Virus record (IMG/VR): IMGVR_UViG_3300028384_001071
Span: 1-64,000 of that record
Direction: 5' to 3' (one strand)
Source: a virus
DNA length: 64,000 bases
Shown here: positions 16,086 to 49,497 of the stretch, in pieces
Numbering within the stretch: position 1 is the first letter of the stretch
Layout of the letters: every line of letters begins with the position of its first letter
Notes under the pieces: model-generated
The model's database searches: none
Seen by the model: the letters and a program-made list of their open reading frames with translations, nothing else
What the model was told of the DNA's origin: nothing
Translations under genes and position numbers: made by a program

Positions 16086-16168
16086 CTGTCGAGACAAATA
16101 GAGAAAGCCCCGCATCAGCCATCGGCTCGTGACTGTCAAGACAAATAGAGAAAGCCCCGCATCAGCCA
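16075..16168. repeat. 47-bp tandem duplication (1 mismatch) covering the left arm of the terminator
   Basis: tcggctcgtgactgtc(g/a)agacaaatagagaaagccccgcatcagcca x2. Confidence 0.9.
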
Positions 16169-16189
16169 CAGTGGCTGATGCGGGGCTTT
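16151..16189. terminator. Bidirectional intrinsic terminator between convergent operons
   Basis: aaagccccgcatcagcca-cag-tggctgatgcggggcttt, perfect 18-bp stem. Confidence 0.85.
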
Positions 16190-16195
16190 GTTCGT

Positions 16196-16609
16196 TTACG
16201 AAGACCGGTACGATAAGCCAGGGCCGTGAGCCGAGACCGTATCGCCGAGAGCCGTGTGCCGAGCTATCACGCCAAGCACGTAGTTGATGCCGAACGTCCC
16301 TTTAAGGAACTGATTCCCAGACTCCGACTTAATGTCGATAGTGTAAGTATCCCCACGATCCGCGAGATCAACACCATCCTTCCAAGCCAGAACCGTACCA
16401 ACCGAAGCCCGTGAACAGGGCAAGTGGTAGAACTCGATAGTGTCACCGTTAGATGCAACACTGCCGACAATACCATCTTCGATCTCGATGAAGACTTGGT
16501 CGTCACCTTGAAGCCGAAGCTGGACATTGGGGCCAGCCCGTACGATGATGTCGGCCTCGAAGTCCGAGTCCGAGGACGCACAAGCATATTCAGATATCTT
16601 CAACATTAT
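16196..16609 (-). CDS. Hypothetical early protein
   Basis: GGAGG RBS, ATG overlapping the upstream stop. Confidence 0.6.
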   Translation of the reverse strand: MMLKISEYACASSDSDFEADIIVRAGPNVQLRLQGDDQVFIEIEDGIVGSVASNGDTIEFYHLPCSRASVGTVLAWKDGVDLADRGDTYTIDIKSESGNQFLKGTFGINYVLGVIARHTALGDTVSAHGPGLSYRSS

Positions 16610-17004
16610 CCCTCCAATGATAAGTGAGTGACCTTGGTCAGTTCGAATGACCTGACCCCTGCTGGTGAACCAATCACCGGCTTCTTGGCTGATGGCCCCA
16701 GCCAATCGACTAGGTCTTCGAACGTAAGTTCATTACCGGCCGCGTCAATGTAGGAATCCTTACCACGAACCAAGTCAGCCAGTTCGATGTAAGTCTTCCC
16801 ATTGTGCTCGACAATGTTGCCGTTCCGTTTGCCCCACTGTCGGACACCAGTCCCCGGAGGTCGAAGATAGCCAATAAAGGCCGATGTCTTGATAACGCCA
16901 TCCCAAGGGCATGACTTCTTCAACCGGGGTGAGGACTGGTAGCCAATAGCGAGACGACAAGGAACAGATAGTTGCTGCACCTGAGCCACGCTAACGTTCA
17001 TTGA
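16606..17004 (-). CDS. Conserved phage hypothetical protein, paralog of 1795-2292
   Basis: GGAGG RBS; RQWGKR, VEHNGKTYI, VRSFELT. Confidence 0.65.
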   Translation of the reverse strand, partial: SMNVSVAQVQQLSVPCRLAIGYQSSPRLKKSCPWDGVIKTSAFIGYLRPPGTGVRQWGKRNGNIVEHNGKTYIELADLVRGKDSYIDAAGNELTFEDLVDWLGPSAKKPVIGSPAGVRSFELTKVTHLSLEG

Positions 17005-17224
17005 TAACCTCCACTCGAAATCCACATTGTGTAACATCCATGAGCATCAACATCTGACCGTTACGTACAGCCAGACCTTCAAGTCCTCCGTCGTCATTCA
17101 GAATACGAACCTCTTCCCCGTTCCCGAGGTAGTGGGCATTCTGAAACAAGTCGGTAACCGCCGACTCGTAATCAGGATAAACCTGATCACAAGTGTAGGC
17201 CCCGAATGCATCGATAACAATCAT
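16991..17224 (-). CDS. Hypothetical early protein
   Basis: ATGA coupling. Confidence 0.55.
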   Translation of the reverse strand: MIVIDAFGAYTCDQVYPDYESAVTDLFQNAHYLGNGEEVRILNDDGGLEGLAVRNGQMLMLMDVTQCGFRVEVINER

Positions 17225-17433
17225 CGTCCCAACTCCCGACCATCCATCTGGCGTTCAATCTCCCGCTTGGCACGATACGAACGGTAAGGTTCGATCACAA
17301 CCGGGCGGTAACGCCGGCGGTGAGACTGGAGCAGGGTAGCCGTACTCGCAGCCATCACACATAAGACTAAGATCGCAACGATCCCAACCTTAACATCGTG
17401 GATGGTGGAGCCGGCAAGCTTACGCCTTGCCAT
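17221..17433 (-). CDS. Small membrane protein
   Basis: GGAGGTG RBS; hydrophobic VGIVAILVLCVMAASTA. Confidence 0.6.
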   Translation of the reverse strand: MARRKLAGSTIHDVKVGIVAILVLCVMAASTATLLQSHRRRYRPVVIEPYRSYRAKREIERQMDGRELGR

Positions 17434-17452
17434 GTGGCACCTCCGCAAATAC

Positions 17453-17521
17453 TGCACTGAATCCCGCTCACCAACCCTATCACGTTACGAACGTGATGGG
17501 TCCGTTAGCCGAATCAGTGCA
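17453..17521 (-). promoter_or_regulatory. Long imperfect RNA hairpin, RNase III-like processing site candidate
   Basis: tgcactga...atcacgtt-cgt-aacgtgat...tcagtgca. Confidence 0.55.
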
Positions 17522-17556
17522 TGGGAAACCTCAGCGTACTGCTGGAGCCATGAAAT

Positions 17557-18096
17557 TCAAACAAGTCGTGTTACGGCTGACAACGTAGCAGCCACCGACC
17601 CTGTAACATACGCACCTCCATCTTCATAAGTCGCGGCGTACAACAGTGCTTCCCACAGATTGTAAGTCCTGAGGTCAGCACCAAACTGGATGTACGCCCC
17701 TTGATCCAGACAATTACTCGACAGACAATGTCGAGCAGCATCTTGAACGTTACCAGCCACACCTCTGACAGCCCTGAGCTTGTCCTTGACTGTGGTATAT
17801 TCATCGAGGAACACACGAGCCTTCAAGAACCAGACAGGAGCCGTCACAAACCCGGAATCAATACTCCGACCCTCGGGGTCGACAGTACAGATCTGAGTAG
17901 CAGCCTCTTCCCACCATTCGGAGTGAGTACTCCAAGTCTTGATGAGAACCGAACCCGGCGGAATGTCAGCTTCACTCACGGAAGTCGTGAGTGTTGCGAA
18001 TGGTTCTTCACCATCCAGCAAGCAGATAGCTGGCTTCCCCGTAGCTTGATACGTTTCATACTTCACTGTGAGCTTACGCCCGAGTACAGTAATCAT
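17557..18096 (-). CDS. Early protein (N-terminus DUF4313-like), enclosed by stem 18116-18130/17535-17549
   Basis: GAGGTG RBS before ATG 18096; Y...G.PAI.L...EPFATLT pattern. Confidence 0.65.
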   Translation of the reverse strand: MITVLGRKLTVKYETYQATGKPAICLLDGEEPFATLTTSVSEADIPPGSVLIKTWSTHSEWWEEAATQICTVDPEGRSIDSGFVTAPVWFLKARVFLDEYTTVKDKLRAVRGVAGNVQDAARHCLSSNCLDQGAYIQFGADLRTYNLWEALLYAATYEDGGAYVTGSVAATLSAVTRLV

Positions 18097-18139
18097 AGGA
18101 CACCTCATCTCTAAAGGCTCCAGCAGCACGGTACTTCCA

Positions 18140-18293
18140 ATATTGCAAGGCTCTCAGCCCCGGACAACACATCCGGGAGCCGAGAGCCCTGTAATATAAA
18201 TAACCGGACCCCAACTCTCGGCTCACGGCTAACCGCGATTCCGACCAGTGAATTGGTCTACAGACTTGCTGGTCAAGCAGTCAAGCCCGGTTA
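18140..18293 (-). ncRNA. Structured intergenic RNA (multi-hairpin domain plus a long hairpin)
   Basis: Stem 18201-18216/18279-18293 enclosing small hairpins; about 25-bp hairpin 18140-18197 with G-U pairs. Confidence 0.45.
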
Positions 18294-18308
18294 AATAACC
18301 CTCCTTGG

Positions 18309-18422
18309 TTATCGATCGATTTGTGGAACCCGTGGACCCCAGTCCCATTGCGTAGGGTGCTGTATTCCAGCACACCCGCTAAGACACGAGATTGTGATCA
18401 GGGCGATGATGAGTCGTTTCAT
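18309..18422 (-). CDS. 37-aa lipoprotein (not in the ORF track)
   Basis: MKRLIIALITISCLSG|CAGIQHPTQWDWGPRVPQIDR; lipobox LSGC; AAGGA RBS. Confidence 0.75.
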   Translation of the reverse strand: MKRLIIALITISCLSGCAGIQHPTQWDWGPRVPQIDR

Positions 18423-18475
18423 GATATCCATTCCTTTGGTTAAGTGGTGAGTGCCGAGAATCCGGGAGCTTGCAA

Positions 18476-18595
18476 TTAGTCATTCGTAATCATGCGGATA
18501 CAGTGTGAAGACCTTGGTATTTGACCCCACCTCTGCAGCATATCATCCTCACCGTAGTGAGCGACAACTTCGAGTAGGTCAGCACGTTTACGCAT
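18476..18595 (-). CDS. 39-aa early peptide enclosed by stem 18614-18638/18449-18473
   Basis: GAGGTG RBS, ATG 18595; flanked by 25-bp inverted arms. Confidence 0.55.
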   Translation of the reverse strand: MRKRADLLEVVAHYGEDDMLQRWGQIPRSSHCIRMITND

Positions 18596-18672
18596 AGGGC
18601 ACCTCGCTTTCCAGCAAGCTCCCGGATTCTCGACACTCGTACGATGCTTCCATTGACAGCTCCAAGCCGATA

Positions 18673-18942
18673 CTACTCACCGTCTGAAGACATCGCTCCT
18701 GCTACAGCTTGGACAGCTTCGACCGCACGTTGCGACGAACCAGCCAGCTTTATCAACTCACGAGCAGCCGTGAACAGTGTCTTTGAGCTAGGCATTCCCG
18801 GCATACGTTCATCTAGCAGGAACTCCTGCACGCTTCGACCACTGTCCAGAATCATCTGACGCAATAGTTTGCACTCGGCTATTGACGCACCTGTCCGGCG
18901 GACAAGTGACGCCACCTCTGGCATTTCACGTGGATCGCTCAT
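18673..18942 (-). CDS. Early protein, paralog of 19014-19304
   Basis: GAGGTG RBS; shared SVQEFLL and LFxAAxxLxxLAG. Confidence 0.7.
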   Translation of the reverse strand: MSDPREMPEVASLVRRTGASIAECKLLRQMILDSGRSVQEFLLDERMPGMPSSKTLFTAARELIKLAGSSQRAVEAVQAVAGAMSSDGE

Positions 18943-19013
18943 AGGCACCTCACATTCTAGGTGAGAGCATCGGACTCGGAACTGCCAATTAGCAGTTCTG
19001 GCTTGACTGTCGG

Positions 19014-19304
19014 TTAGTCGTTTCTGAACTTAAGATAAGACTCAAGAACTTCCCGAGCCATCGCATAATCATTCCCTGCAAGAATGACCAATCTCTCAGC
19101 GGCATCGAATAAGGCCAGCACATTGCTGGCCTCAGACTCACGATCCTTCATTGTTAGCAGGAACTCCTGCACCGAGCCGCCCTCACTCACAATATGCGAA
19201 CGTAGGGCTTTGGCCTCAGCCAGTGGACACTGGCATTGTCGCATGATTTCCGCCAACTCCAAGGGTTCGTAGTTGACGTCGATCTCATCAGTAGATTTGG
19301 ACAT
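19014..19304 (-). CDS. Early protein, paralog of 18673-18942
   Basis: AGGAGG RBS; shared motifs. Confidence 0.7.
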   Translation of the reverse strand: MSKSTDEIDVNYEPLELAEIMRQCQCPLAEAKALRSHIVSEGGSVQEFLLTMKDRESEASNVLALFDAAERLVILAGNDYAMAREVLESYLKFRND

Positions 19305-19373
19305 ATAGCGTCCTCCTGTCTAGACAGTCAATCGAACCAGAACTGCCAATCACAGGCACCCGCGAATTGGGAA

Positions 19374-19808
19374 TTATTCGGGTAGGTTAATCACTTTGAC
19401 CGCACCTAAGCCTTGCAACTTTCGATCGTTGAAGGCTTGAGATGTGTCAGGGTTCATGAATGACCCATGAACCTTGAGGGCACCGCTGGTCGTTGTTACG
19501 ACAGCGTACATTGGCTGATCTGTACGGCTCACGACGAGCCGACCATCCTCACGATAGAGGACAGTTCCAACCGCACGTGAACCCTGCCAGATGATGAAGC
19601 ATTCGACTTTATGCTCCTGAGCATTGAAAGCGTTGAGAGCCTGACGCAGTGCGTCTTCGAATGTCTCGAATTCAGCCCGAATGTTCAGGCTGTCGATTAG
19701 TCCAGACATCCCATCTAATAGGCCGGCAATCGGGTCAAGTGACCCGACCGAACCGTACGTTTTCTGAGTGGCAGCGGTCACGGTGTATTTGATGCGTTCT
19801 GAAATCAT
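19374..19808 (-). CDS. Hypothetical early protein
   Basis: GAGGTG RBS; enclosed by a 25-bp stem. Confidence 0.7.
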   Translation of the reverse strand: MISERIKYTVTAATQKTYGSVGSLDPIAGLLDGMSGLIDSLNIRAEFETFEDALRQALNAFNAQEHKVECFIIWQGSRAVGTVLYREDGRLVVSRTDQPMYAVVTTTSGALKVHGSFMNPDTSQAFNDRKLQGLGAVKVINLPE

Positions 19809-19849
19809 AGACACCTCGCGTTTCTAGCGGGTGCCCATGATTGGCAGTT

Positions 19850-20064
19850 CTGCCTATATCGAGCGTCGATTTCGATGTTGTCGAGTGTCGACTTGCGAAA
19901 TCTCGTGTTTAGGCTCTCGGCTGTAGGCTGGTTTGACCCTCAATGGGCATCTCAGAGAAGACGATTCCAGCCCTAAATGAGCCGAAATCACTAAGAAACG
20001 CGGCATATCGGGACAAACCAAGCCTACATGACGAGGTGCCTACCACGTCCGCTCGACTGGGCAG
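19850..20064 (-). ncRNA. Structured non-coding element
   Basis: Nested inverted repeats 19850-19865/20050-20064 and 19922-19939/20010-20028; no ORF in the track. Confidence 0.4.
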
Positions 20065-20094
20065 GTCCGATGTAAATCACAGTACGGAGCTTAA

Positions 20095-20139
20095 ACCGCC
20101 GGGTGGGAATTGAACCCACCGATACGCCATGTCAGCGGT
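20095..20139 (-). ncRNA. Minimal tRNA-like element (acceptor stem plus T-arm, no anticodon arm)
   Basis: accgctg-acatggcgtatc-ggtggg-TTCAATT-cccacc-cggcggt. Confidence 0.55.
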
Positions 20140-20172
20140 AAGCCGGAGCCGAGAGCCGGGAGCCGAGCCTAG

Positions 20173-20517
20173 TTAAACCGCAGGTTCAATTGTGTACACC
20201 CCATCCTCCTCAACTACGCGATGCTTACCCATCAGTTGCGGGTCAAGCTGGTGACACGTCAACATCACGGCATTGAAAGCATCGCAAGCATCTTGCGAAC
20301 TCTGCACCCGATGAACAGTCGGCTCCCACTTCGAGGCACCGTGGTCATACGAGAACACAACCTGAATCCGCACTTCGGGATTCAGATCTGTACGAGCTTG
20401 CTGAAGACGACCAATCAGCTTGGTCATCTCCACACGTCGAGCATGTGGCATGTCCAACCGATTAGTAGCAATCAACATTTCGATAGCGTCAGTCACTACT
20501 TGCTGTAAGTCAGTCAT
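20173..20517 (-). CDS. Hypothetical early protein
   Basis: GAGGT RBS; enclosed by a 17-bp stem. Confidence 0.7.
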   Translation of the reverse strand: MTDLQQVVTDAIEMLIATNRLDMPHARRVEMTKLIGRLQQARTDLNPEVRIQVVFSYDHGASKWEPTVHRVQSSQDACDAFNAVMLTCHQLDPQLMGKHRVVEEDGVYTIEPAV

Positions 20518-20600
20518 AGGTACCTCATTTCTAAGGCTCCCATCTCTCGGCAGTACGGCACTTTCAGAGGAGTTCCCGGTGAAGGGAGCAGAGCTACTGA

Positions 20601-22091
20601 CTAAGCCGAGGCATCCGACGTATCGGGTGTCTCTGAGGAGGCGTCTACATCGCCAGTAACAGGGTCCGAGGCAGCGGCGGCTTCAGTCACAGCTTCTTGG
20701 AAGCTGCTCCAAAGTGTCCGCTGTGTTTCCTCTTCCAGGTCACCGAGAGATGCAAATGTCATCTCGATTTGCTGGTACGTAACATCATCGACGCCGATCA
20801 GGTACTGACAAGCGGGAGCACGGGTAACCGTCTCCGTGAGCTTGGTAGCATCGTCCTGATCGACCGCTTGCATCGCGAGCTTGACGAACGGATTGGCGTG
20901 AGTGTCGGCCATCGAGTTGATGGAGTCACGCTCCATCTGCTTCGACCGCGTCTTCTTGCCAGTCAGTTGTCGCTCGATCCACGCGTTCATAATGTCAGGC
21001 GTCGGCCGAACCATTTCCGGCTTCGGCGGATTCAAGCCCGTACGACGAGTATTCTCGTCGTTGAACTTTCGATCAGTTTCGCACATGTTGCCCATTGGAT
21101 AGATGAAGTCGGGGTGGCCAATGACCGTGCCCTGACCTTGGAAGGCGTACTGGTTGAACGAGGTCCACGGAAGGTGGTCCGGGTTCGGGTACGACTTGCC
21201 GTCATCGTCCTTGAGCGTGGCGGGTTGCTGGATACGCTCGGCGAACCGAATAGCAGCCCACGCGTCTCGCTCTTCCTTGGATAGCGACCCGTCCGCTGCC
21301 CTTTGTCGAGCATAGATGTCGACCTTGGAAGCGAAGTAGAATCGCAGCCCCTTGGTTGAGCCACCAAGCTCCCGGCGGACCTGCGTTTGAGACTTGCCAT
21401 AGTTCTCAACGAGATCGAGAACCGTAGCGAGCGTCTCACCCGCAGCCATCTGCTTGAAGCCTGCATCCTTACCGTGATTCTCACGGAGTTGAGCCATCCG
21501 ACGTGAAGCCACATCGAGATAACGCTTCTCCTTGTTGTGAGGCACGATTGCATGGATATGCGTGGGAATCTTGTCAGCGACCTGCTCCGGCTGGAGCTTC
21601 GGGTCACCGGCAGCATTGACCGCGTTAAGGTAGTTCATGACACAAGCGTCAAGCACGACCGAAGCACGACGATTCGCCGTGACCCCAACGTACTTGGGCT
21701 TCTTGAACTTGACCTTGCCGTCACCCCCAATCGACTCGATGTAGAGCCATTCGAAGGTGGCGACCGCAGCCTGTGCGTATTCCAGCCCAGGAATACGAAC
21801 CGTCTTGCCATCGCGGGTGATCGGCACAGCGTCCAACTTGTCCTCGGTTTTGAGGATCGAGTTGAGCCGGTTCCATTCGTTCTGGCGAAGCTCCAAGATA
21901 CGAGCGACCTCGTCCTTGTTTGCCAGTTCGACGATTGCCGGATGCTGAGCATCCCATCCCGGTGCGATCTGGTCACGGATTTCGCGAAGCTGAGCCGCTG
22001 AACCGTAGTCCACGCGGATGTTGCGAGCAGGGTCGTGACCGACGAGAGCGAACTCGTTGCATTTCGGTTCAGGAGTTGTTGGTACTGTCAT
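20601..22091 (-). CDS. Large ParB-like protein (ParB/Srx-like domain plus HTH)
   Basis: RNIRVDYG..LREI...I..GW...P; YVGVTANRR (GxRR-like); AQLRENH; E.LA...L...YGKSQTQVRRELG; AAGGA RBS at ATG 22091. Confidence 0.55.
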   Translation of the reverse strand: MTVPTTPEPKCNEFALVGHDPARNIRVDYGSAAQLREIRDQIAPGWDAQHPAIVELANKDEVARILELRQNEWNRLNSILKTEDKLDAVPITRDGKTVRIPGLEYAQAAVATFEWLYIESIGGDGKVKFKKPKYVGVTANRRASVVLDACVMNYLNAVNAAGDPKLQPEQVADKIPTHIHAIVPHNKEKRYLDVASRRMAQLRENHGKDAGFKQMAAGETLATVLDLVENYGKSQTQVRRELGGSTKGLRFYFASKVDIYARQRAADGSLSKEERDAWAAIRFAERIQQPATLKDDDGKSYPNPDHLPWTSFNQYAFQGQGTVIGHPDFIYPMGNMCETDRKFNDENTRRTGLNPPKPEMVRPTPDIMNAWIERQLTGKKTRSKQMERDSINSMADTHANPFVKLAMQAVDQDDATKLTETVTRAPACQYLIGVDDVTYQQIEMTFASLGDLEEETQRTLWSSFQEAVTEAAAASDPVTGDVDASSETPDTSDASA

Positions 22092-22380
22092 CAGAGTGTC
22101 CTTTCGGGACGTGCTGACAAGCACCAGTAGCCGAGAGCCGAGTAGTTGTACCGCCGTCGTCAAATCCGCCGCTAGGGCTTGCACAACGCGAGGCCGAGTA
22201 GAGTGTGTGTCGATGCTAAGATCGACCGAGCTTCGAGAACCAAGACTAGGCTCCCGACTACCAGTGCCTGCCAGCAGGGTTTCGGAAGATGCGACTCGAC
22301 GTTGAGCCGCAAGGATACCGGGAACCCCTCTGGAAGCACCGTACTGCTATCAAGAGGATCATTTCGAGGCACCGCGTTGA

Positions 22381-22755
22381 TCAGATAGCCTTGCCATACT
22401 TAGCAAGGAACGCGAGCATTTCCTGCCGGGTTTGCGTGTACCGTACCTTCACTTTCCGCGTAGTGTTATGGTGGAAGGTAGTCCGTACTGGACCGGCGAA
22501 GTCTTGGTGCATCCGCACCGGGTGGCGATTCGTGCCCGTGTGATTGTGCAGCATGAACCGCGTACGTCGGTGGGTTTCCACCGGAATCGTACGCTCTTCG
22601 TTGCGTGCCCAACCTTCGGCACATTCGTACCACGATTTCGTGTCGAATAGCGTACCGTTGCGGTAGTAGTAGATATCGAGATACCTGCGACCCCACACGA
22701 AACGCTGGTCGATTGTTATCGTCAACTTACGTCGTGAGCGTTTGGATCGTTTCAT
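22381..22755 (-). CDS. Basic early protein
   Basis: GAGGTG RBS; Arg/Lys-rich N-terminus. Confidence 0.65.
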   Translation of the reverse strand: MKRSKRSRRKLTITIDQRFVWGRRYLDIYYYRNGTLFDTKSWYECAEGWARNEERTIPVETHRRTRFMLHNHTGTNRHPVRMHQDFAGPVRTTFHHNTTRKVKVRYTQTRQEMLAFLAKYGKAI

Positions 22756-22810
22756 TGCACACCTCAATTCTATCGGTGTGCAGTACCTCACCCCTTGCGG
22801 GGCTTAGCGG

Positions 22811-22897
22811 CTAGAATGGCCACCACCATCGGCGGGACCGAGCCAAGCGTCGAAGAGCAGGTTGTTCAACAGTGCGAACCCAGTTCTCGAAAGTCAT
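22811..22897 (-). CDS. 28-aa Arg/Trp-rich peptide, first ORF of the early operon (not in the ORF track)
   Basis: GAGGT RBS; MTFENWVRTVEQPALRRLARSRRWWWPF; enclosed by a 27-bp stem. Confidence 0.65.
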   Translation of the reverse strand: MTFENWVRTVEQPALRRLARSRRWWWPF

Positions 22898-22940
22898 AGC
22901 GTACCTCATTCATTGCAAGGAATAGGGTACTGCACACCGA

Positions 22941-23645
22941 TTCGGGATTGCCCGGCCCTTGAATCTATCCCCAGCCGGCCCACACTTCTGTTGGTACGTT
23001 GGAACCCACCTGTCCGGATTGTCAGGCTGCCGGGACAAGTCAACCGGGATTCCTGAACTCAGGTAAAGAACACGGGGAACCCGTACGGCTAAGCAGGGAG
23101 CACTCCGGAGAGTGCATCAGGCTGGCGGTTATTAGCTGGCCAGCGTGCTCGCACGAGGGATAGATTCAAGAGCCGGGGCGGTGCCCCGAAAAGATCCTCT
23201 TGATTATTTGCATCGGTGGTTATTTGCCTACTCACGCCGCAATGGATACCACCAAACCTGCTGCCCTTGCGTGAGTTGCTAGCCTTAAACCTTTCACGTG
23301 AGGAACCTGATACCCGCATGCATCATTGATCGGATGCACCGGTAGCCGGGACGGCACGCTAGTAGCTTTATAGTTGACTAGCTCGTGGATCACAGTACGG
23401 ATCTTGCGTATTCGTGCGCCCGTAAGGGTTTCGAGATACGCGACAACGCGAACCGTGAGACGATTATGTAAGCCGCTTGCCTGAGTGCGTACGGATTCTA
23501 TCCGCACTGAGGGAAACTGGTGTAATCCCTCCAGAGGCAGTTGCAGCGTGTACGTCTAGCCCATAACCAGCCGGGTTACGACGCACGCCAACATCAGATT
23601 GTACCGGGAGCGTACCTTTCACATAAGGGAACGAACAACACGCAA
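22941..23645 (-). ncRNA. About 700-nt structured leader or large ncRNA
   Basis: No SD-led ORF seen; 21-bp stem 23157-23177/22951-22971 and many short hairpins. Confidence 0.5.
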
Positions 23646-23651
23646 TGTCAG

Positions 23652-23680
23652 ATTGTACGCGGAGACCCTCCGCGTGTCAA
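23652..23680 (-). promoter_or_regulatory. Sigma70-type early promoter
   Basis: TTGACA-cgcggagggtctccgcg(17)-TACAAT. Confidence 0.85.
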
Positions 23681-23847
23681 CCCCGTTGACGCGGAATTTC
23701 GAAAATGGCGGAACATCGGTCACGCCGTCACCGATAGGTGAACACCCGTCGACCGAGTCCCCGTTTCCGGTTTCCCGCGTCACCCGCAGGCGACACCCTA
23801 GTATACAAACCCCCTATTTTAACACTGTTGGTGAACATTCGCTCAAA

Positions 23848-23894
23848 CCACAATATGTTGTGTCAAAACGAATGTTCACCACTATATGTTGTGG
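23848..23894. promoter_or_regulatory. Tandem NrdR-box-like sites
   Basis: ccacaatatgttgtgt (23848) and ccactatatgttgtgg (23879), 31 bp apart. Confidence 0.65.
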
Positions 23895-23964
23895 TCGAAA
23901 TTATTCTAAGATTTTACTGGACATGCCTGGTATACGAGAATGTCGTCATAAAGATTCACGAAAA

Positions 23965-24245
23965 TAATCACCTTGACGACACATGTCATAATGGCAGTCG
24001 TCATTCCGAGGACATCTGTCAAGATGGCAGTATCATATTGATCACACTGCCATTATGACATGTCATAATGGCAGGTGGCATAGTCACTGTGACACTGTCA
24101 CAATGGCAGTTGTCGTCACTTTGAGTACACTGCCACAATGGCAGTCATCACAATGACGACAGCCATAATGGCAGGTGTAGTCATAATGAGGACAGGGTGG
24201 GTCAAATTGACCTGTCAAAATGGCAGTGTTGTCAGTATGATACAA
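23965..24245. repeat. Array of about 17 short dyads (YCA-N3-TGR; best copies TGTCAnAATGGCAG)
   Basis: Copies near 23984, 24017, 24048, 24061, 24096, 24131, 24161, 24213, with weaker copies in between. Confidence 0.8.
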
Positions 24246-24460
24246 CGCCCCATCGACTCTGAATTATACGGAATTTCCGCAGGCCGTTTCGCGGAGCGGT
24301 GAGGCTCTCGGCTCCCATCTCAAGGGCCGTGACTCTTAACCTGCGACTCTCGGCTCCCATCTCAGGGAGGGTGGGTCAAATGGAGCGAGGAAGCATCGAA
24401 GCGTAGAAGCAAGTAAGCGAAGTCCGCAGAGCGAATATCTCTAAGAATCAAGAGCCGAGA

Positions 24461-24636
24461 GCCTGTAGCACATCAAATACACCCAATCCGCGGAAGCCTG
24501 TAGTACATCAAATACACCCAATCCGCGGAAGCCTGTGGGTGGGTCAAATACACCCAATCCGCGGAAGCCTGTAGCACATCGTAGGCACCCAATCCGCGGA
24601 AAGCCATACTACACCATCCATACCCAATCCGCGGAA
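24461..24636 (+). repeat. Five iteron-like direct repeats, about 35-bp period
   Basis: Invariant ACCCAATCCGCGGAA at 24481, 24516, 24552, 24587, 24622. Confidence 0.9.
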
Positions 24637-42417: not shown

Positions 42418-45400
42418 ATGACACAGAATGTGCAATTTGGAGGTAACACCGCAGGCTTGGAATCCGCATTGAAGCGGGTGAATAAGTTCTTCGATGCGAC
42501 TAACAACAAGATCAAATCTGTTAGTCGAGCATCGGTATCACTTAACAAGCGTGGCGGCGAACTCCGAACAACAATCAGTGGATTGACAGTCGATGGTCAA
42601 CGATTCACTGCGACACTTGACCGTGTCAAGACCAAAACCGGGAAGCTGACGAAGGATTGGAAGGTGATGAGAGTCGCCACCGACTCCGCCGCTGAAGGTC
42701 AGAAGCGTCTTCAAAAGGAATTGAAACGAACATCGGCTGAGGCAGCTAAAGTCAGTGCCCAGCAAGCAAAGATCAATAACAGGAAGGAAGCATCAAGATT
42801 CCTGAGAAGTAACATCACAGGTAACAGGCAATTGTTCCCTGATGGTTTTGGCTCAGGTACTACCGATGCTCAAAGGGCTAATGTCCAAGCTGCGATTGCA
42901 GCCACTGGTCGACTTATCGAACGTGGCGAGTTCACTCGGCAGCAGTTCGCACGGGTCGGCAACGACATCCGGAATAACTTGAACGCAGCGTTCACAGGTC
43001 CGGAGGCTAAGGCGGCAGCAGCCTTCCGTCGAATTGACGCAGCGATGCGGAACACTGGGACCACGGCTCAAGAGGCCGCGAAGAAGGTGATCTTGACATG
43101 GACTGGTGTAATTAGGCTGTTTGCAGTTCAAGCCTTGCACTTGGTTATCGGACGGATAATAAGCAGCTTCCGGGAAATGGTCACAACAACCGTTGACCTT
43201 TCGAAACGGATTGCGGAGATAGGGACGATCTCGCGTAACGCAAACGCAGGATTCGGGGAATGGTCAAGTGTGTTGAAGGAAGTATCCAATAACTTTGGAT
43301 TGGATCTTCTAGATGTGGCCGAGGGTGCATATCAAGCACTGTCAAACCAAGTAGCGAATGCCGCAACTGTTCAAGGCTTCTTAAACGAAGCCGCGTCATT
43401 CGGTCGAATTACAAACTCTAGTTTGACAGACTCTGTAAACCTTCTGTCGTCAGCAGTCAATGCTTATTCGTCACAAGGATTGTCAGCCGCCCGAGCATCA
43501 GAAGTCTTCTTCAAGACTATTGAACTTGGCCGTGTTCGTGCATCTGAACTAGCCAACACGTTAGGTACATTACTGCCGCTTACTTCACAGTTAGGTGTGT
43601 CGGTTGAAGAAGCCGCAGCAAGTGTTGCGACTCTGACCATTCAAGGTATCAGATCTGACACAGCGTTGACACTCATGCGTAATGTCATGCTTGGCCTTAT
43701 TAAGCCAACCGACAGCATGAAGCAGTTGATGGAAGAATGGGGTGTTAGCACTGGTGAAGCGGCGATCGCTACATTCGGATTGTCCGGAGTTCTTGAGCGA
43801 TTGAACCAAGAAGCCCTTAGCGGTGGGATTACTCGTATCGGTGAACTAGCGGGCCGTCTGCGAAACATTCAAGGTGTCATCGGTACTACCGGTAACGCCT
43901 TTGGTAAATTCAACGACAACCTTCGTGAAATTCAAGAAAATGCAGCCTCGTCATTCGACATTGCAGATCGCATAGCATCGAACTCACTGGGCAATCGACT
44001 GTCGGTACAGTTCCGGGAATTCCAGAACTTCTTCCGGACAGAACTAGGCCCTGCACTTTCGAGAAGTATCGCAGACCTTGTTGATAGGTTCGGAGGTGTT
44101 GATACAATCTTGAAGAATCTGATCGGACCATTCCAATCATTCTTCAATATCATGTCATCATTCACCGAAGTGATCACAGCAGTCATAACTCCCATCGCGG
44201 ATATGGCAAGTAGTTTAGGATTAGTCTCAGCCGGTGGAAGCCTACTCGGACCAATCTTAGCGGCACTGACTGTTCGATGGGTTACAATGCGTGCCCAAGT
44301 CGTGGCATCGTCTGCTGCGACATTGTTAGCAGCGGCAGCTAAAGGTAAGCTCGGAGTATCTGCCCGTAGACTCGGTGCAATAATCCGATTGAATCGAATC
44401 CGGTTCAAGAATCTAACAGCATCTATAAGAGCCAACGCTCAAGCGGCAACTCTTCTGAATGCTGGTAGTAGAGCTTTGAGTGTCACAACTAGACTACTCG
44501 GATCTGCCTATCAGAGGGTGACAGCCTTCTTAATCCAGAACCGGATAGCTCAAGGCGTCTCGAATTTCACTACTAAGATTGCAACCACAACTCAGAGTTT
44601 GTTCAGAACTGCCCTTCTTGCGACGACATTTCAATTAGGCATTTTCCGAGCAGCGTTACTTCAAACAAACATCGGCACGAAGCTGGTAAACGTATCCTTG
44701 AACATCGCAGCAATTGGTACGAGGTTGTTTGGTTCGAGTTCAGCGATCGCAGCCGGTGGGGTGTTAGCTCTGACAGTTGCTACACGAGCGTTGGCTATCG
44801 CAGTCAATTCGGCATTCTTCTTCCTACCATTACTGATTGGATTCTTCATTGAAGCCGGTCAAGCGGCGGAAATGGAGTTTGCTAATAAGCTCGATGTCGC
44901 AGTCGAAGAGTCTCGAAGGTTAGGTCAGGAATCCTTAAAGGAACTGAACAAGAGTCTCGATGAGAACAAAGTAGCCTTCACGGATGTGGCAGATGCAATA
45001 TCTGGTAAGTATCTGAAGGCCATCGCTGAGGTCCGTCGAGAAGCATTGAAGCTGTCAGGTGAAGAACTTAACGGAGCCTTTGATGGTTCTCTGGGTTCTA
45101 TCAATCCTGATGATCTTGCTCAAGAACTAGGATTCGACAACAAGACAGCCAAGGATGCGGCTAAGGAAGCTGTTAAGTCGATCGAAGATAGCCGCTCGAA
45201 AGTCGAGAAGCTATTGTCGTCTATCACCGAGCTGCAAGAAGGAATTGCAGATCGTGCGTTGACGACGACCGCTGATAGTATCAAAGCAGCATCTGGTAAT
45301 CTTGAAGAAGTCGCCTTCTTGCAAGGCGAGCTTGAGAAGCTACTGACTCGTTCAGATACCTTCTTCGCATCAGGCGACCTTGACTCTGCAGAGCGAACCC

Positions 45401-46995
45401 TTGACAGGGCTGCTCGTTTGGCAGATCGAATCGATAAGGTCGATGCGACGATCGGGACTGAAGGTCTTGAAAGCGACCTCAAGAGTCTGAATGAAGCCAT
45501 CAAGGTCACTGCTAAGCTGATTGAAGATGCTGACAAGCTCCTCAATGTTGAGCAGAAGTTCACGATCCCTGAGCTATCAGTTAAGATTCGTGGTACTGAT
45601 GATCTGAAGGAAGCAATCAATCTGTTCGGGAAGTTCACCGATCAGGTCGAGAAAGCAATGAAGACTGTTGACGATCTCATTAAGAGTACACGTCAGCAAG
45701 TCATCGAGTTCGATCGACTAGGTGATGCGGAAGACCCGTTTAAGCTTGAGCAGGATGCTATCGAGCTATTCAATCTTGGTAACATCGATCAAGCCAAGAC
45801 ACTGTTTCAACAAGTTGACAAGCTCATCAATGGTATCGTTAAGAATGAACGTAAGGTCATCCGTTCAGCGGAAGCCCTTGGTGTCCGATTCCGTTCAGGT
45901 ATCCTGAATAGATTCCGTAACGTATTCTCAGATCGACTTAACACTCTGAATCAGGGTCAAGGTCGTCTACAGGGTATACGGGGTCAGACAACAGGTGCCT
46001 TCCGAGGCTTGGTTGATCGTAACCGATCTAACCTAGAATCGAATCGAACGCGAGCCACTGACCTAGCCCGTCAGATTGCAGCGAACCCGAATGCGGCATC
46101 ATCAGATGCAAGGGATCGTGTCGATCAAGCTCGTATCCGTTTACTACAGTCGGAAGTCGATAATCAGAAGAAACAGCAAGAACGTCAAGCTGAACTGTCT
46201 CGATCATTCCAAGCAATTGCGAATAGTCAAGACGAGATTGTACGTAAGACTAAGGAAGCCAACGAAGCGCAGGCGGCTTACAACAAGAGAATCCAACAGA
46301 CTGCCGAGAATTACGAACTAGCTCGAACCAACCTTAACAAGTTGGTAACCGACGGTGGTCGTCTTCAATTCGGTAAGGGATTCTTCGGCTTCGGATCGAC
46401 AGACCTGACAGGTATTGAAGCTGCATCTCAACAAGCCGCAAGTGCGGCAGGTGCATTGTTTAGTGATCAAAGCGTTCCTGCTTTGAACCGCTACACTCAG
46501 TCTCTTAACAGGCTTGTGTCAGAGATTGAGAAGTCTCTTCTGATTGAGGAAGGTCTTAACCCTGATGGTAATCGGGCGGAACTGCTAAAGCAGATCCCAT
46601 CGATTAGCGTTGGAGGGCAACCTCAATCAGCGTCGTTGTTCATTAAGGACTTCCGAGATTCGATTCGAGAGTTCGACAAGAACTTCCGAGCGAACTTCTC
46701 AAGTAGCCGAGGCGGTGTGCGTCCCGATGGGCCTGCTGCGTTGGAACGTGCAGTTCGAGATGAACTGAAGAAGGCAAACCAGTCATTGGATGTCATTCGA
46801 AATCGTGGAACTTTCACACCTCAGATCCGATCAGGTTCTAGTGGTATTGGGCCTCAAAGTAATGCCGGTGCAATCACTGTCGGTGATATTGTTCTGAACA
46901 TTGACGGGGCTGACGCTAGTGAAGGTGAAATGTACGAACGAATTACCCGTAGATTACGACGCGATGTTCTTCGCGGAAATGTGAGGTTAGGATGA
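42418..46995 (+). CDS. Tape measure protein
   Basis: 1525 aa helical protein with TP901-type core and hydrophobic central segment. Confidence 0.9.
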   Translation: MTQNVQFGGNTAGLESALKRVNKFFDATNNKIKSVSRASVSLNKRGGELRTTISGLTVDGQRFTATLDRVKTKTGKLTKDWKVMRVATDSAAEGQKRLQKELKRTSAEAAKVSAQQAKINNRKEASRFLRSNITGNRQLFPDGFGSGTTDAQRANVQAAIAATGRLIERGEFTRQQFARVGNDIRNNLNAAFTGPEAKAAAAFRRIDAAMRNTGTTAQEAAKKVILTWTGVIRLFAVQALHLVIGRIISSFREMVTTTVDLSKRIAEIGTISRNANAGFGEWSSVLKEVSNNFGLDLLDVAEGAYQALSNQVANAATVQGFLNEAASFGRITNSSLTDSVNLLSSAVNAYSSQGLSAARASEVFFKTIELGRVRASELANTLGTLLPLTSQLGVSVEEAAASVATLTIQGIRSDTALTLMRNVMLGLIKPTDSMKQLMEEWGVSTGEAAIATFGLSGVLERLNQEALSGGITRIGELAGRLRNIQGVIGTTGNAFGKFNDNLREIQENAASSFDIADRIASNSLGNRLSVQFREFQNFFRTELGPALSRSIADLVDRFGGVDTILKNLIGPFQSFFNIMSSFTEVITAVITPIADMASSLGLVSAGGSLLGPILAALTVRWVTMRAQVVASSAATLLAAAAKGKLGVSARRLGAIIRLNRIRFKNLTASIRANAQAATLLNAGSRALSVTTRLLGSAYQRVTAFLIQNRIAQGVSNFTTKIATTTQSLFRTALLATTFQLGIFRAALLQTNIGTKLVNVSLNIAAIGTRLFGSSSAIAAGGVLALTVATRALAIAVNSAFFFLPLLIGFFIEAGQAAEMEFANKLDVAVEESRRLGQESLKELNKSLDENKVAFTDVADAISGKYLKAIAEVRREALKLSGEELNGAFDGSLGSINPDDLAQELGFDNKTAKDAAKEAVKSIEDSRSKVEKLLSSITELQEGIADRALTTTADSIKAASGNLEEVAFLQGELEKLLTRSDTFFASGDLDSAERTLDRAARLADRIDKVDATIGTEGLESDLKSLNEAIKVTAKLIEDADKLLNVEQKFTIPELSVKIRGTDDLKEAINLFGKFTDQVEKAMKTVDDLIKSTRQQVIEFDRLGDAEDPFKLEQDAIELFNLGNIDQAKTLFQQVDKLINGIVKNERKVIRSAEALGVRFRSGILNRFRNVFSDRLNTLNQGQGRLQGIRGQTTGAFRGLVDRNRSNLESNRTRATDLARQIAANPNAASSDARDRVDQARIRLLQSEVDNQKKQQERQAELSRSFQAIANSQDEIVRKTKEANEAQAAYNKRIQQTAENYELARTNLNKLVTDGGRLQFGKGFFGFGSTDLTGIEAASQQAASAAGALFSDQSVPALNRYTQSLNRLVSEIEKSLLIEEGLNPDGNRAELLKQIPSISVGGQPQSASLFIKDFRDSIREFDKNFRANFSSSRGGVRPDGPAALERAVRDELKKANQSLDVIRNRGTFTPQIRSGSSGIGPQSNAGAITVGDIVLNIDGADASEGEMYERITRRLRRDVLRGNVRLG

Positions 46996-48013: not shown

Positions 48014-48426
48014 TGGCTACTGTTACTGTTGACGTTTCCCAAGAACTCTCGTTGAGTCAATTAGGTGAAGGGTTTGGTTCTGGAACACTCATTTCACAAT
48101 TAGACTTCCAACAAACTGCGGAAGTCAACAGAATCTCCAACATTAGTGTTTTGTCACAGCTTGTAATCATCGACTCTGGCTTGGTCCCAAGGCTTGTTCA
48201 TGTCAACCAGCAGTTAGGTTTATCTGATAATGTTGTTCAACACGTGATAGATGTAAATCAATCACTAAGCCTGGACGACTCTGTCTATATCGAAAGACGC
48301 ATAGCACCTTCCAGCACACTCACCTTCACGTCCGGAATAGGACTCAACATTAATCAGAATCTCTCAGTCACATCGATGATCGACTTCCAACAGGTCGCGA
48401 TTGGCTACTCAGAATACACTTGTTGA
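48013..48426 (+). CDS. Tail-associated repeat protein
   Basis: V.Q.L.L periodicity. Confidence 0.55.
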   Translation: MATVTVDVSQELSLSQLGEGFGSGTLISQLDFQQTAEVNRISNISVLSQLVIIDSGLVPRLVHVNQQLGLSDNVVQHVIDVNQSLSLDDSVYIERRIAPSSTLTFTSGIGLNINQNLSVTSMIDFQQVAIGYSEYTC

Positions 48427-48435
48427 GGTGCAATC

Positions 48436-49497
48436 ATGGCATTAAGATGGATAGAGGGTTTCGAACTGTTCGGAACCTCAACTGACATTGACACTACTCT
48501 GGGTTATAAGTACCCTTCCTTTATTAGCACAATTACCGACTATGACATATCGTCAGTCGTAAGATATGCATCAGGGTCGGGCCAGTCACTTCTGGTCGAA
48601 TCGATATCTGATTTCTACCTTGAGACCCCCACACTAAGTGCCCAGTCTCACTGGTTTATTGGATTTGCATTCAATGTGTCCGACACTGAAAGTAGCTTTA
48701 AACCGGTGTTCAAGTTAGTAGACGAGAATGGTGATGTCCAAGTCCGTATCAATTGTGGTACTGGATTAACCCCAGCATTCAACGTCTACAGAGGTGACAA
48801 TACCTCATTACTCGGTACGACTCAAGTCTTCGCGCTCAGTGAATGGCATTATGCTGAATTTGAGATTGTCATTGACAATTCAACGGGTATTGTCCGTAGT
48901 TGGTTGAATGGGGTTCAAGATCTCAATCTGACGGGCCTAGATACTCAACAGTCAGCAATCGCAACGGCCGACAAGGGTCAAATGTGGTTAGGCTGGGGTG
49001 ATACTAATTCTGATCTTTACCTTGACGATTGGTACATGTGTGACAACACAGGATCAACTAACAACAGTCGTTTGGGTAACGTCCGAATTGAAGGACTCCT
49101 ACCTGCCGGTGCTGGTAATTCAGCCCAATGGACTCCGGACTCAGGTAGCAATTACGACCGTGTGAATGAAGCCACTGCCGATGCAGATACTTCATATGTT
49201 GAGTCTCAGACTGTGTCCGAGAAAGACACATACACATTTGACAACCTCACTGATATTAATTCGAACATCTTGGGAGTGCAAGTTTCAGCAATAGCTCGCT
49301 TGTCGGATACTGATGTAGCACCGGACTTCCGGACCGTCGCTCGAAGCAACGGCATTGAATCAACAGGCAACACTCATACTCTGAACAGTACAACTTACTC
49401 TTGCAAGGCGGACGTATTTGAAACAGATCCGGATACCGGGTCCGCTTGGACAGACACTGCCGTGAATGCGGCTGAATTTGGTGTTGAAACCGTTTAG
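48436..49497 (+). CDS. Tail protein with lectin-like domain
   Basis: MALRWIEGFE, WHYAE, YLDDWY, DPDTG.AWT...VNAAEFG. Confidence 0.7.
   Translation: MALRWIEGFELFGTSTDIDTTLGYKYPSFISTITDYDISSVVRYASGSGQSLLVESISDFYLETPTLSAQSHWFIGFAFNVSDTESSFKPVFKLVDENGDVQVRINCGTGLTPAFNVYRGDNTSLLGTTQVFALSEWHYAEFEIVIDNSTGIVRSWLNGVQDLNLTGLDTQQSAIATADKGQMWLGWGDTNSDLYLDDWYMCDNTGSTNNSRLGNVRIEGLLPAGAGNSAQWTPDSGSNYDRVNEATADADTSYVESQTVSEKDTYTFDNLTDINSNILGVQVSAIARLSDTDVAPDFRTVARSNGIESTGNTHTLNSTTYSCKADVFETDPDTGSAWTDTAVNAAEFGVETV

Follow-up and report, generated by a model that had tools for sequence, protein, structure and literature searches.

Gene-enclosing RNA stems and a possible three-strand translational switch in an uncultured phage's early operon

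The window analysed here is the first 64 kb (positions 1 to 64,000) of a 101,564-bp uncultured phage record (IMG/VR IMGVR_UViG_3300028384_001071), in which the packaging and structural module occupies the plus strand from about 29 kb. Most genes of its minus-strand early transcript are each closed in by their own long-range RNA stem, a near-perfect duplex of 15-41 bp, which raises the question of whether these stems take part in the control of translation. The original prediction, made from the sequence alone, held that the inner part of most 5' arms folds over the Shine-Dalgarno (SD) sequence of the enclosed gene and is displaced once the 3' arm exists. The folds reported here are consistent with a three-strand switch in the early cassettes, in which the enclosing helix and a mask laid by the 5' arm over the ribosome-binding site (RBS) would make translation conditional on closure of the helix; we put the chance of this reading at somewhat below even.

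Gene-enclosing stems of the early operon

A consensus scan placed a sigma-70-like promoter at the operon head, and an intrinsic terminator was found at its end. The same scan, carried along the minus strand down to 16200, found no internal promoter comparable to the 23680-23652 site. With one promoter, one terminator and no comparable internal site, the early operon makes up one transcript of about 7.5 kb, whose genes are named below by their start positions.

23652..23680, minus strand: sigma-70-like early promoter, TTGACA-17-TACAAT, 11 of 12 consensus matches
16151..16189, minus strand: intrinsic terminator, 18-bp stem and U tract
Early genes, minus strand, start (length in amino acids): 22897 (28), 22755 (124), 22091 (496), 20517 (114), 19808 (144), 19304 (96), 18942 (89), 18595 (39), 18422 (37), 18096 (179), 17433 (70)

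Downstream of these, close-packed genes continue to 16196. A repeat search showed long-range inverted repeats bracketing single genes or groups of genes, with the following arms (minus strand, 5' arm first).

22941-22915 with 22798-22772: stem of the 28-amino-acid gene 22897-22811; 27 nt, 85% complementary; minimum free energy (MFE) fold
23204-23178 with 22375-22349: outer stem around the leader domain and genes 22897 and 22755; 27 nt, 93%; MFE fold
23177-23157 with 22971-22951: inner leader stem, 21 bp
22347-22317 with 20580-20550: stem of the 496-amino-acid gene 22091-20601; 31 nt, 87%; 5' arm 225 nt upstream of the AUG
20551-20535 with 20164-20148: stem of gene 20517
19867-19827 with 19363-19323: stem of gene 19808, from the repeat search
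19350-19324 with 19014-18988: stem of gene 19304; its 5' arm overlaps the 3' arm of gene 19808
18989-18966 with 18674-18652: stem of gene 18942
18638-18614 with 18473-18449: stem of gene 18595; 25 nt, 96%
About 18130-18116 with about 17549-17535: stem of gene 18096

Adjacent stems abut head to tail (23177/23178 and 22347/22349). At the operon head (22951-23204) they are nested, the outer 27-bp stem holding within it the 21-bp stem, which in turn closes off about 185 nt of non-coding hairpins; the structured leader as a whole is some 700 nt long. When the whole 101.6-kb genome was scanned, long-range inverted repeats of at least 18 nt were clustered at 16-24.3 kb.

Mismatches in the window stems comprised nine G-U pairs in the minus sense, one G-U pair in the plus sense and two others. 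Moreover, genes 19304 (19014-19304) and 18942 (18673-18942) are paralogues, with 41% identity over 63 amino acids and a common SVQEFLL core. Over the outer 16 pairs of their stems, three double (compensatory) and five wobble-compatible changes were counted, and no pair was broken. Because of the G-U asymmetry and the compensatory changes between the paralogous stems, a DNA-level reading of the repeats as cassette or recombination elements was rejected. On the evidence of these substitution patterns, the enclosing stems are genuine and work as RNA, in the minus (messenger RNA, mRNA) sense. No published description of gene-enclosing stems was found in the literature, and the architecture is apparently undescribed so far.

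Outside the window, the only other inverted repeat of this genome with arms longer than 20 nt and a spacing above 100 nt was found at 68295-68324 / 68751-68780 (arms of 30 nt with 26 matches, spaced by 426 nt); none of its four mismatches is a G-U pair, in contrast to the early-operon stems.

Local hairpins over the ribosome-binding sites

The seven local pairings named in the original prediction were all present at their genes in the mRNA sense. Their strength was expressed as the opening energy, that is, the free energy needed to make positions -14 to -4 single-stranded in a context of -45 to +12, and was compared with 300 dinucleotide shuffles of the upstream part. The hairpins (minus strand) and the opening energies of the five stronger ones, in kcal/mol, were as follows.

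22901..22930, gene 22897: 5' strand 22930-22920 inside the arm, loop 22919-22912, 3' strand 22911-22901, SD GAGG 22907-22904; 10.2 vs 5.6-5.8 shuffled, p about 0.04, strong masking
22756..22782, gene 22755: 5' strand 22782-22775, 3' strand 22763-22756; 10.0 vs 4.0-4.3 shuffled, p<=0.007, strong in local context
20516..20551, gene 20517: GCCUUA 20537-20532, GAAA 20531-20528, UGAGGU 20527-20522, extended by 20543-20539 with 20520-20516; 9.3 vs 3.3-3.4 shuffled, p<=0.01, strong
19803..19867 (with 5' arm), gene 19808: GGCACCCGC 19835-19827, loop 19826-19820, GCGAGGUGUC 19819-19810, extended over the AUG; 14.0 vs 5.0-5.1 shuffled, p<=0.003
18600..18638 (with 5' arm), gene 18595: CUUGCU 18618-18613, GGAA 18612-18609, AGCGAG 18608-18603, SD 18605-18600; 8.5 vs 5.4-5.5 shuffled, p about 0.08-0.10, marginal
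18946..18989 (with 5' arm), gene 18942: weak pairing of CACCU 18963-18959 with AGGUG 18950-18946
18101..18130 (with 5' arm), gene 18096: weak pairing of GGAGCCUU with GAGGU.UCC, with a 7-nt loop in the fold

The hairpin of gene 19808 was the most stable (about 19 bp, -24 kcal/mol), and it covered the AUG as well. The masking strand lay inside the gene's own 5' arm, as had been proposed for most genes, in 22897, 20517, 19808 and 18595. This part of the proposal failed for two others: the strand over gene 22755 (22782-22775) is the 3' arm of the upstream 28-amino-acid gene's stem, and the CACCU strand of gene 18942 lies between the 5' arm and the SD, outside the arm. The early genes for which no hairpin had been cited showed no excess over shuffles, namely 22091 (6.0 vs 4.6, p=0.22), 19304 (5.8 vs 7.8), 18422 and 17433.

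It had also been suggested that GNRA tetraloops cap three of the hairpins and explain the recurring UAGA(A)...GAGGUG spacer. The MFE folds showed tetraloops for only two genes (GAAA in 20517 and GGAA in 18595), and this explanation was rejected. Within this phage, the YUAGA(A) motif that precedes GAGGUG is confined to these early genes, and it is single-stranded in both states; it is perhaps part of a shared A-rich RBS module, serving as a standby or S1 site.

Another reading of the motif is transcript-specific control as in phage T4. In T4 genes e, soc, 49 and I-TevI, the RBS is masked in longer transcripts and the masking is relieved by a promoter inside the hairpin. Applied to the early operon, each hairpin would contain or adjoin a promoter with the TAGAAT-like motif as its -10 box, and only read-through RNA would be silent. 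TAGAAT or TAGAAA does occur in the hairpin loop of several genes, and the likeness to T4 extends to a phage RBS hidden by upstream RNA in some transcript forms. The T4-type PeSL cassettes, in which an early promoter is paired with a stem-loop, are a kindred design (PMC2839356). Unlike in these systems, the promoter scan found no promoter-like minus-strand site at any hairpin, the motif has no -35 partner, and a start 5-9 nt past it would fall in or after the SD and so remove it. The -10 box was rejected on the scan and the position of the start, and T4-style control as a whole is highly improbable here.

The same design in related phages

A terminase search returned 39 related viral contigs; the terminases of the related phages are 47-51% identical. 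Abutting gene-enclosing stems are present in the equivalent operon of two of these contigs (G002 and G004, terminase about 50% identical), and neither their arms nor their genes are related to those of the window. In all four of their clear cassettes (G002 60418 and 60955, G004 42048 and 44296), the 5' arm's inner end covers the RBS, at 10.7-11.3 kcal/mol. For example, a 5' arm of G004 ends in CCUCCUUG, the SD region reads AAGGGAG and the 3' arm begins with CAAGGGGG. In a third relative (L020), the RBS segment GCAAAGG, a copy of the first 7 nt of the 3' arm, pairs with the arm end CCUUUGC. A fourth (L045) encloses a 68-amino-acid gene with no masking. The same masking design was thus present in five of the six enclosed genes of related phages. 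No cultured phage relative was found.

Two further observations concern G004 (L053). A conserved AACCATCC(CC) motif stands ahead of several 5' arms and ribosome-binding sites at about 42470-46330, and three tandem small genes have a near-identical leader, CCATCCCTAACAGAAAGGAC. The motif and leader may be a processing or recognition site specific to this phage.

Masking exceeds chance and is gene-specific

Summed over the 11 window genes, the opening energy was 86.7 kcal/mol against 58.1±6.8 for shuffles, and none of 300 shuffles reached it. For 12 enclosed genes of three phages (the window, G002 and G004), the sum was 114.4 against 67.1±6.7. When the upstream part (-45 to -16) of each of these 12 genes was joined to the RBS part of every other, the opening energy fell from 9.5 kcal/mol for cognate to 5.6 for swapped pairs. 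None of 20,000 permutations reached the observed sum (p<5e-5), and eight of the 12 genes ranked first or second with their own arm. Masking therefore uses gene-specific nucleotides around the SD, not merely a generic CCUC.

In the same three phages, 206 other SD-led genes had means of 3.9-4.9 kcal/mol with cognate equal to swapped, and 2-10% of them reached 9. Against this baseline, eight of the 12 enclosed genes stood at 9-14 kcal/mol. Counting all relatives, a sequestering helix of 9-14 kcal/mol was found in four window genes and five genes of relatives, against 4-5 in the 206 controls. In all, nine of 14 enclosed genes in five phages were masked. As far as folding models can tell, RBS masking in enclosed genes is not chance and looks designed; its statistical footing is firm, and related phages show it again.

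These controls bear on a second explanation, in which the local hairpins are folding guards that park the 5' arm against mispairing with the open reading frame (ORF), or are incidental, the SD being merely the nearest purine-rich stretch and no meaningful control being exerted. The pairing probability of the SD did not differ from that of shuffles (0.70 vs 0.61), five of the 14 enclosed genes lack masking, and three of the window hairpins use a generic CCU...AGG module beside the UAGA motif which is not arm-specific (ranks 2, 6 and 8 of 12). Pairing probability is the cruder statistic: in this G+C-rich RNA an SD usually has some partner, and it is the stability of the pairing that is unusual. 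Against this explanation, values of 9-14 kcal/mol are far beyond the range of the 206 control genes, the masking is cognate-specific and recurs in related phages with unrelated sequences, and a guard need not cover the SD, nor the AUG as in gene 19808. We consider this explanation unlikely.

Predicted relief of masking by the 3' arm

To examine the three-strand switch, the 5' arm alone was compared with the same arm given its partner, either by cofolding with the cognate 3' arm or by folding the full cistron. The opening energies (5' arm alone, then with the cognate 3' arm or in the full cistron) were as follows.

Gene 22897: 9.8, then 1.4-2.6 kcal/mol
Gene 20517: 8.1, then 2.4-5.6 kcal/mol
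Gene 19808: 14.0, then 2.9-4.2 kcal/mol
Gene 18595: 11.2, then 2.3-3.4 kcal/mol
G002 60418: 10.3, then 1.4 kcal/mol
G002 60955: 8.7, then 2.4 kcal/mol
G004 42048: 11.3, then 6.5 kcal/mol
G004 44296: 10.9, then 5.3 kcal/mol
L020: 7.4, then 2.2 kcal/mol

The mean drop was 5.4 kcal/mol with cognate 3' arms and 0.45 with non-cognate ones. In these folds a mutually exclusive and more stable helix frees the SD, which constitutes a predicted thermodynamic switch. The claim that the 3' arm displaces the hairpin thus held in predicted folds for genes 22897, 20517, 19808 and 18595, and it did not hold for 22755, 18942 or 18096.

Gene 22897 also behaved as proposed for truncated versus complete RNA. When transcripts growing from 23204 were folded, its SD cost 5-9 kcal/mol to open until the 3' arm to about 22780 was present, and 1.4 thereafter. 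The proposed gating of gene 22755 by its own hairpin was contradicted by native polycistronic folds, which gave 4.7 kcal/mol throughout; the gene was never masked, because the strand 22782-22775 is already paired in the upstream stem before the SD is made. The findpath barriers from the masked to the open fold were 6-12 kcal/mol in five of six cases, and refolding by strand displacement should therefore be fast.

The same geometry would suit a third explanation, in which the stems are processing or stabilising stalks cut by host RNase III. After trimming of the 3' arm, the freed remnant of the 5' arm would close the RBS, and this snap-back would shut off the early message or provide a protective 5'-terminal hairpin; the timing would be reversed, with translation on first and off later. 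Near-perfect duplexes of 15-41 bp abutting head to tail resemble ribosomal RNA (rRNA) leader-trailer helices, and it would be an advantage for a 7.5-kb polycistronic RNA framed by a single promoter and a single terminator to be divided into units by cleavage. In addition, the three-strand geometry leads one to expect masking in any RNA that lacks its 3' arm, for whatever reason the arm is absent. On the other hand, a search found no RNase III or double-stranded RNA-binding domain protein encoded by the phage, so any processing would be the host's, and the inner half-stem left after a central cut would still compete with the local hairpin. This explanation, too, is probably not the right one.

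The proposed three-strand switch

The three-strand switch would work as follows. A helix of 15-41 bp between the 5' and 3' arms closes each gene of the early transcript into a loop and, in about two thirds of the cassettes, the gene-proximal end of the 5' arm is also complementary to the gene's own RBS. On nascent RNA, on truncated RNA or after loss of the 3' arm, the 5' arm would lack its partner and would fold locally, placing a mask worth 9-14 kcal/mol over the SD, and in gene 19808 over the AUG too. Once formed, the enclosing helix, which is longer and more stable, would pull the arm off and leave the SD single-stranded 6-9 nt from the helix end, so that translation of the masked genes would depend on closure. 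We infer that the masked state is populated in vivo and blocks initiation, and likewise what the masking would be for.

The original prediction went further and proposed that translation is off during synthesis and on afterwards, which would silence truncated mRNAs of toxic genes; this step is purely conjectural. Completion gating and the masking of RNAs that lack the 3' arm (through truncation, or through an RNase III cut followed by 3' trimming) are two sides of the same switch. In its broadest form, the proposal would be that a phage family makes the translation of each early gene conditional on helix closure, with the 5' arm as anti-SD and the gene's own 3' flank as anti-anti-SD, as a check of completeness and integrity for each cistron, repeated along one polycistronic RNA. 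It would amount to a hitherto undescribed way of controlling bacterial translation; we regard this form as doubtful, though conceivable.

Several points weigh against the switch. All of its support consists of nearest-neighbour folding predictions. Gene 18942 (5.9 vs 5.5-5.8 kcal/mol shuffled) and gene 18096 (6.5 vs 4.7, p=0.15) were not masked above chance; with its cognate 3' arm, 18096 went from 3.6 to 4.2 kcal/mol and did not switch, and 18942 showed no meaningful switch either. For gene 22755, masking requires that the upstream stem be absent. The five enclosed genes without masking (19304, 18942, 18096, 22091 and that of L045) indicate that it is not obligatory; masking is therefore an addition that cassettes can do without, and it does not explain why the stems exist. 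No orthologous copies of the cassettes were found for a classical covariation test of the local hairpins. An untranslated nascent ORF should be open to Rho-dependent termination, a cost of completion gating that nothing found here offsets, and fast RNase III cutting in vivo may mean that the modelled equilibrium never applies. If completion gating were the purpose, genes of 28-179 amino acids would be held back for no more than seconds, and a third of the cassettes lack masking altogether.

If the switch is real, the role of the stems would go beyond processing or stability, and translation would be coupled to the completeness or integrity of the RNA, cistron by cistron. It would also offer synthetic biology a compact, modular, cis-acting translation gate that needs neither ligand nor small RNA (sRNA).

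Comparison with known systems

In the E. coli hok mRNA, SD hairpins form first and are followed by long-distance 5'-3' pairing. The H. pylori aapA3 mRNA belongs to the same class, that of type I toxin mRNAs, its metastable local hairpins hiding the SD on the nascent transcript before being replaced by 5'-3' pairing (PMC6733600). The phage cassettes share with both the short nascent SD hairpins and their displacement by later long-distance pairing. However, the final 5'-3' pairing of aapA3 and hok keeps the mRNA inactive until 3' trimming, whereas the long-range stem here is predicted to expose the SD; full-length and cofolded RNAs had an accessible SD (1.4-5.8 kcal/mol) and not a lock of the hok/aapA type. 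A further difference is that the device occurs here on many cistrons within a single operon. Toxin systems of the hok/aapA type also comprise a cis-encoded antisense RNA antitoxin and a small toxic peptide; in the window, the consensus scan found no strong promoter on the plus strand opposite the early genes, and no antisense RNA was seen.

The leader-trailer helices of bacterial rRNA operons are RNase III substrates. There, as here, the sequences flanking a product pair across hundreds of nucleotides to form a long helix, and neighbouring helices abut. Unlike rRNA stalks, the stems of the window enclose protein genes with their own RBS, and RNase III cleavage of them is only putative. We know of no RBS-masking alternative fold in rRNA stalks.

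The masking logic resembles that of rpoS, which is activated by DsrA, RprA and ArcZ through an anti-antisense mechanism, and that of translational riboswitches with their sequestor/anti-sequestor platforms. In all of these, the strand that masks the SD is titrated away by a better partner. In the phage cassettes the partner is the cistron's own 3' flank, and not a trans-acting sRNA or a strand controlled by a ligand-binding aptamer.

Pairing of an mRNA 3' end with its own 5' untranslated region (UTR) is known from the S. aureus icaR mRNA, in which the 3' UTR pairs with the SD in the 5' UTR and represses translation (PMC3868564), and from the B. subtilis hbs mRNA, in which a single 14-bp contact of the 5' UTR with the 3' UTR modulates access of RNase Y (PMC5737220). 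The cassettes are like these in the contact itself. Unlike in icaR, the partner of the 3' arm is the anti-SD strand, and the predicted outcome is de-repression; the 3' arms, whose inner end itself resembles an SD, pair with the 5' arm. A literature search for a cis-acting 3' flank working as anti-anti-SD found nothing closer than icaR, hbs and aapA3. The switch would then be a variant of known translational-switch logic set inside an apparently undescribed gene-enclosing architecture.

Other features of the early region

Pfam and PHROGs searches assigned no function to any early-operon protein, all of which are orphans except for a weak Cor-like signal in the 37-amino-acid gene. This ORF (18309-18422) sits between two enclosed cassettes without a stem of its own; it has a lipoprotein-type signal peptide (MKRLIIALITISCLSGC...) and a weak PHROG match to Cor superinfection-exclusion proteins. 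Rfam returned only sub-threshold chance matches, and ARAGORN found no tRNA. No relatives of the 179- and 144-amino-acid proteins were found in viral contigs.

The 496-amino-acid protein (20601-22091) falls in no Pfam or PHROG family. It has no close relatives, and it is absent from ten terminase relatives. In metagenomes, 36 remote homologues were found, with identities down to 25%, nine of them at E<1e-30, and with invariant N, R, P and G positions; scans of viral, metagenome and genome contigs for DNA encoding these homologues were empty. By sequence comparison, it is a member of an uncharacterised conserved protein family.

Between the divergent early (minus-strand) and plus-strand operons, 23965-24243 holds dense direct and inverted copies of a ATAATGGCAGT / ACTGCCATTATGACATGT motif, overlapped by several weak promoter-like sites; this is probably an array of operators or iterons, and related phages have counterparts built of other motifs (G002 63978-64324; G004 48076-48553). 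Additionally, the 10-mer GGCTCTCGGC, with one mismatch allowed, has 18 copies in the window against 3.4 expected. Twelve of these lie in or beside the early operon (16223-24463), on both strands, and several are located at or in stem arms, for example at 20148-20164, 18179-18188 and 22130-22139.

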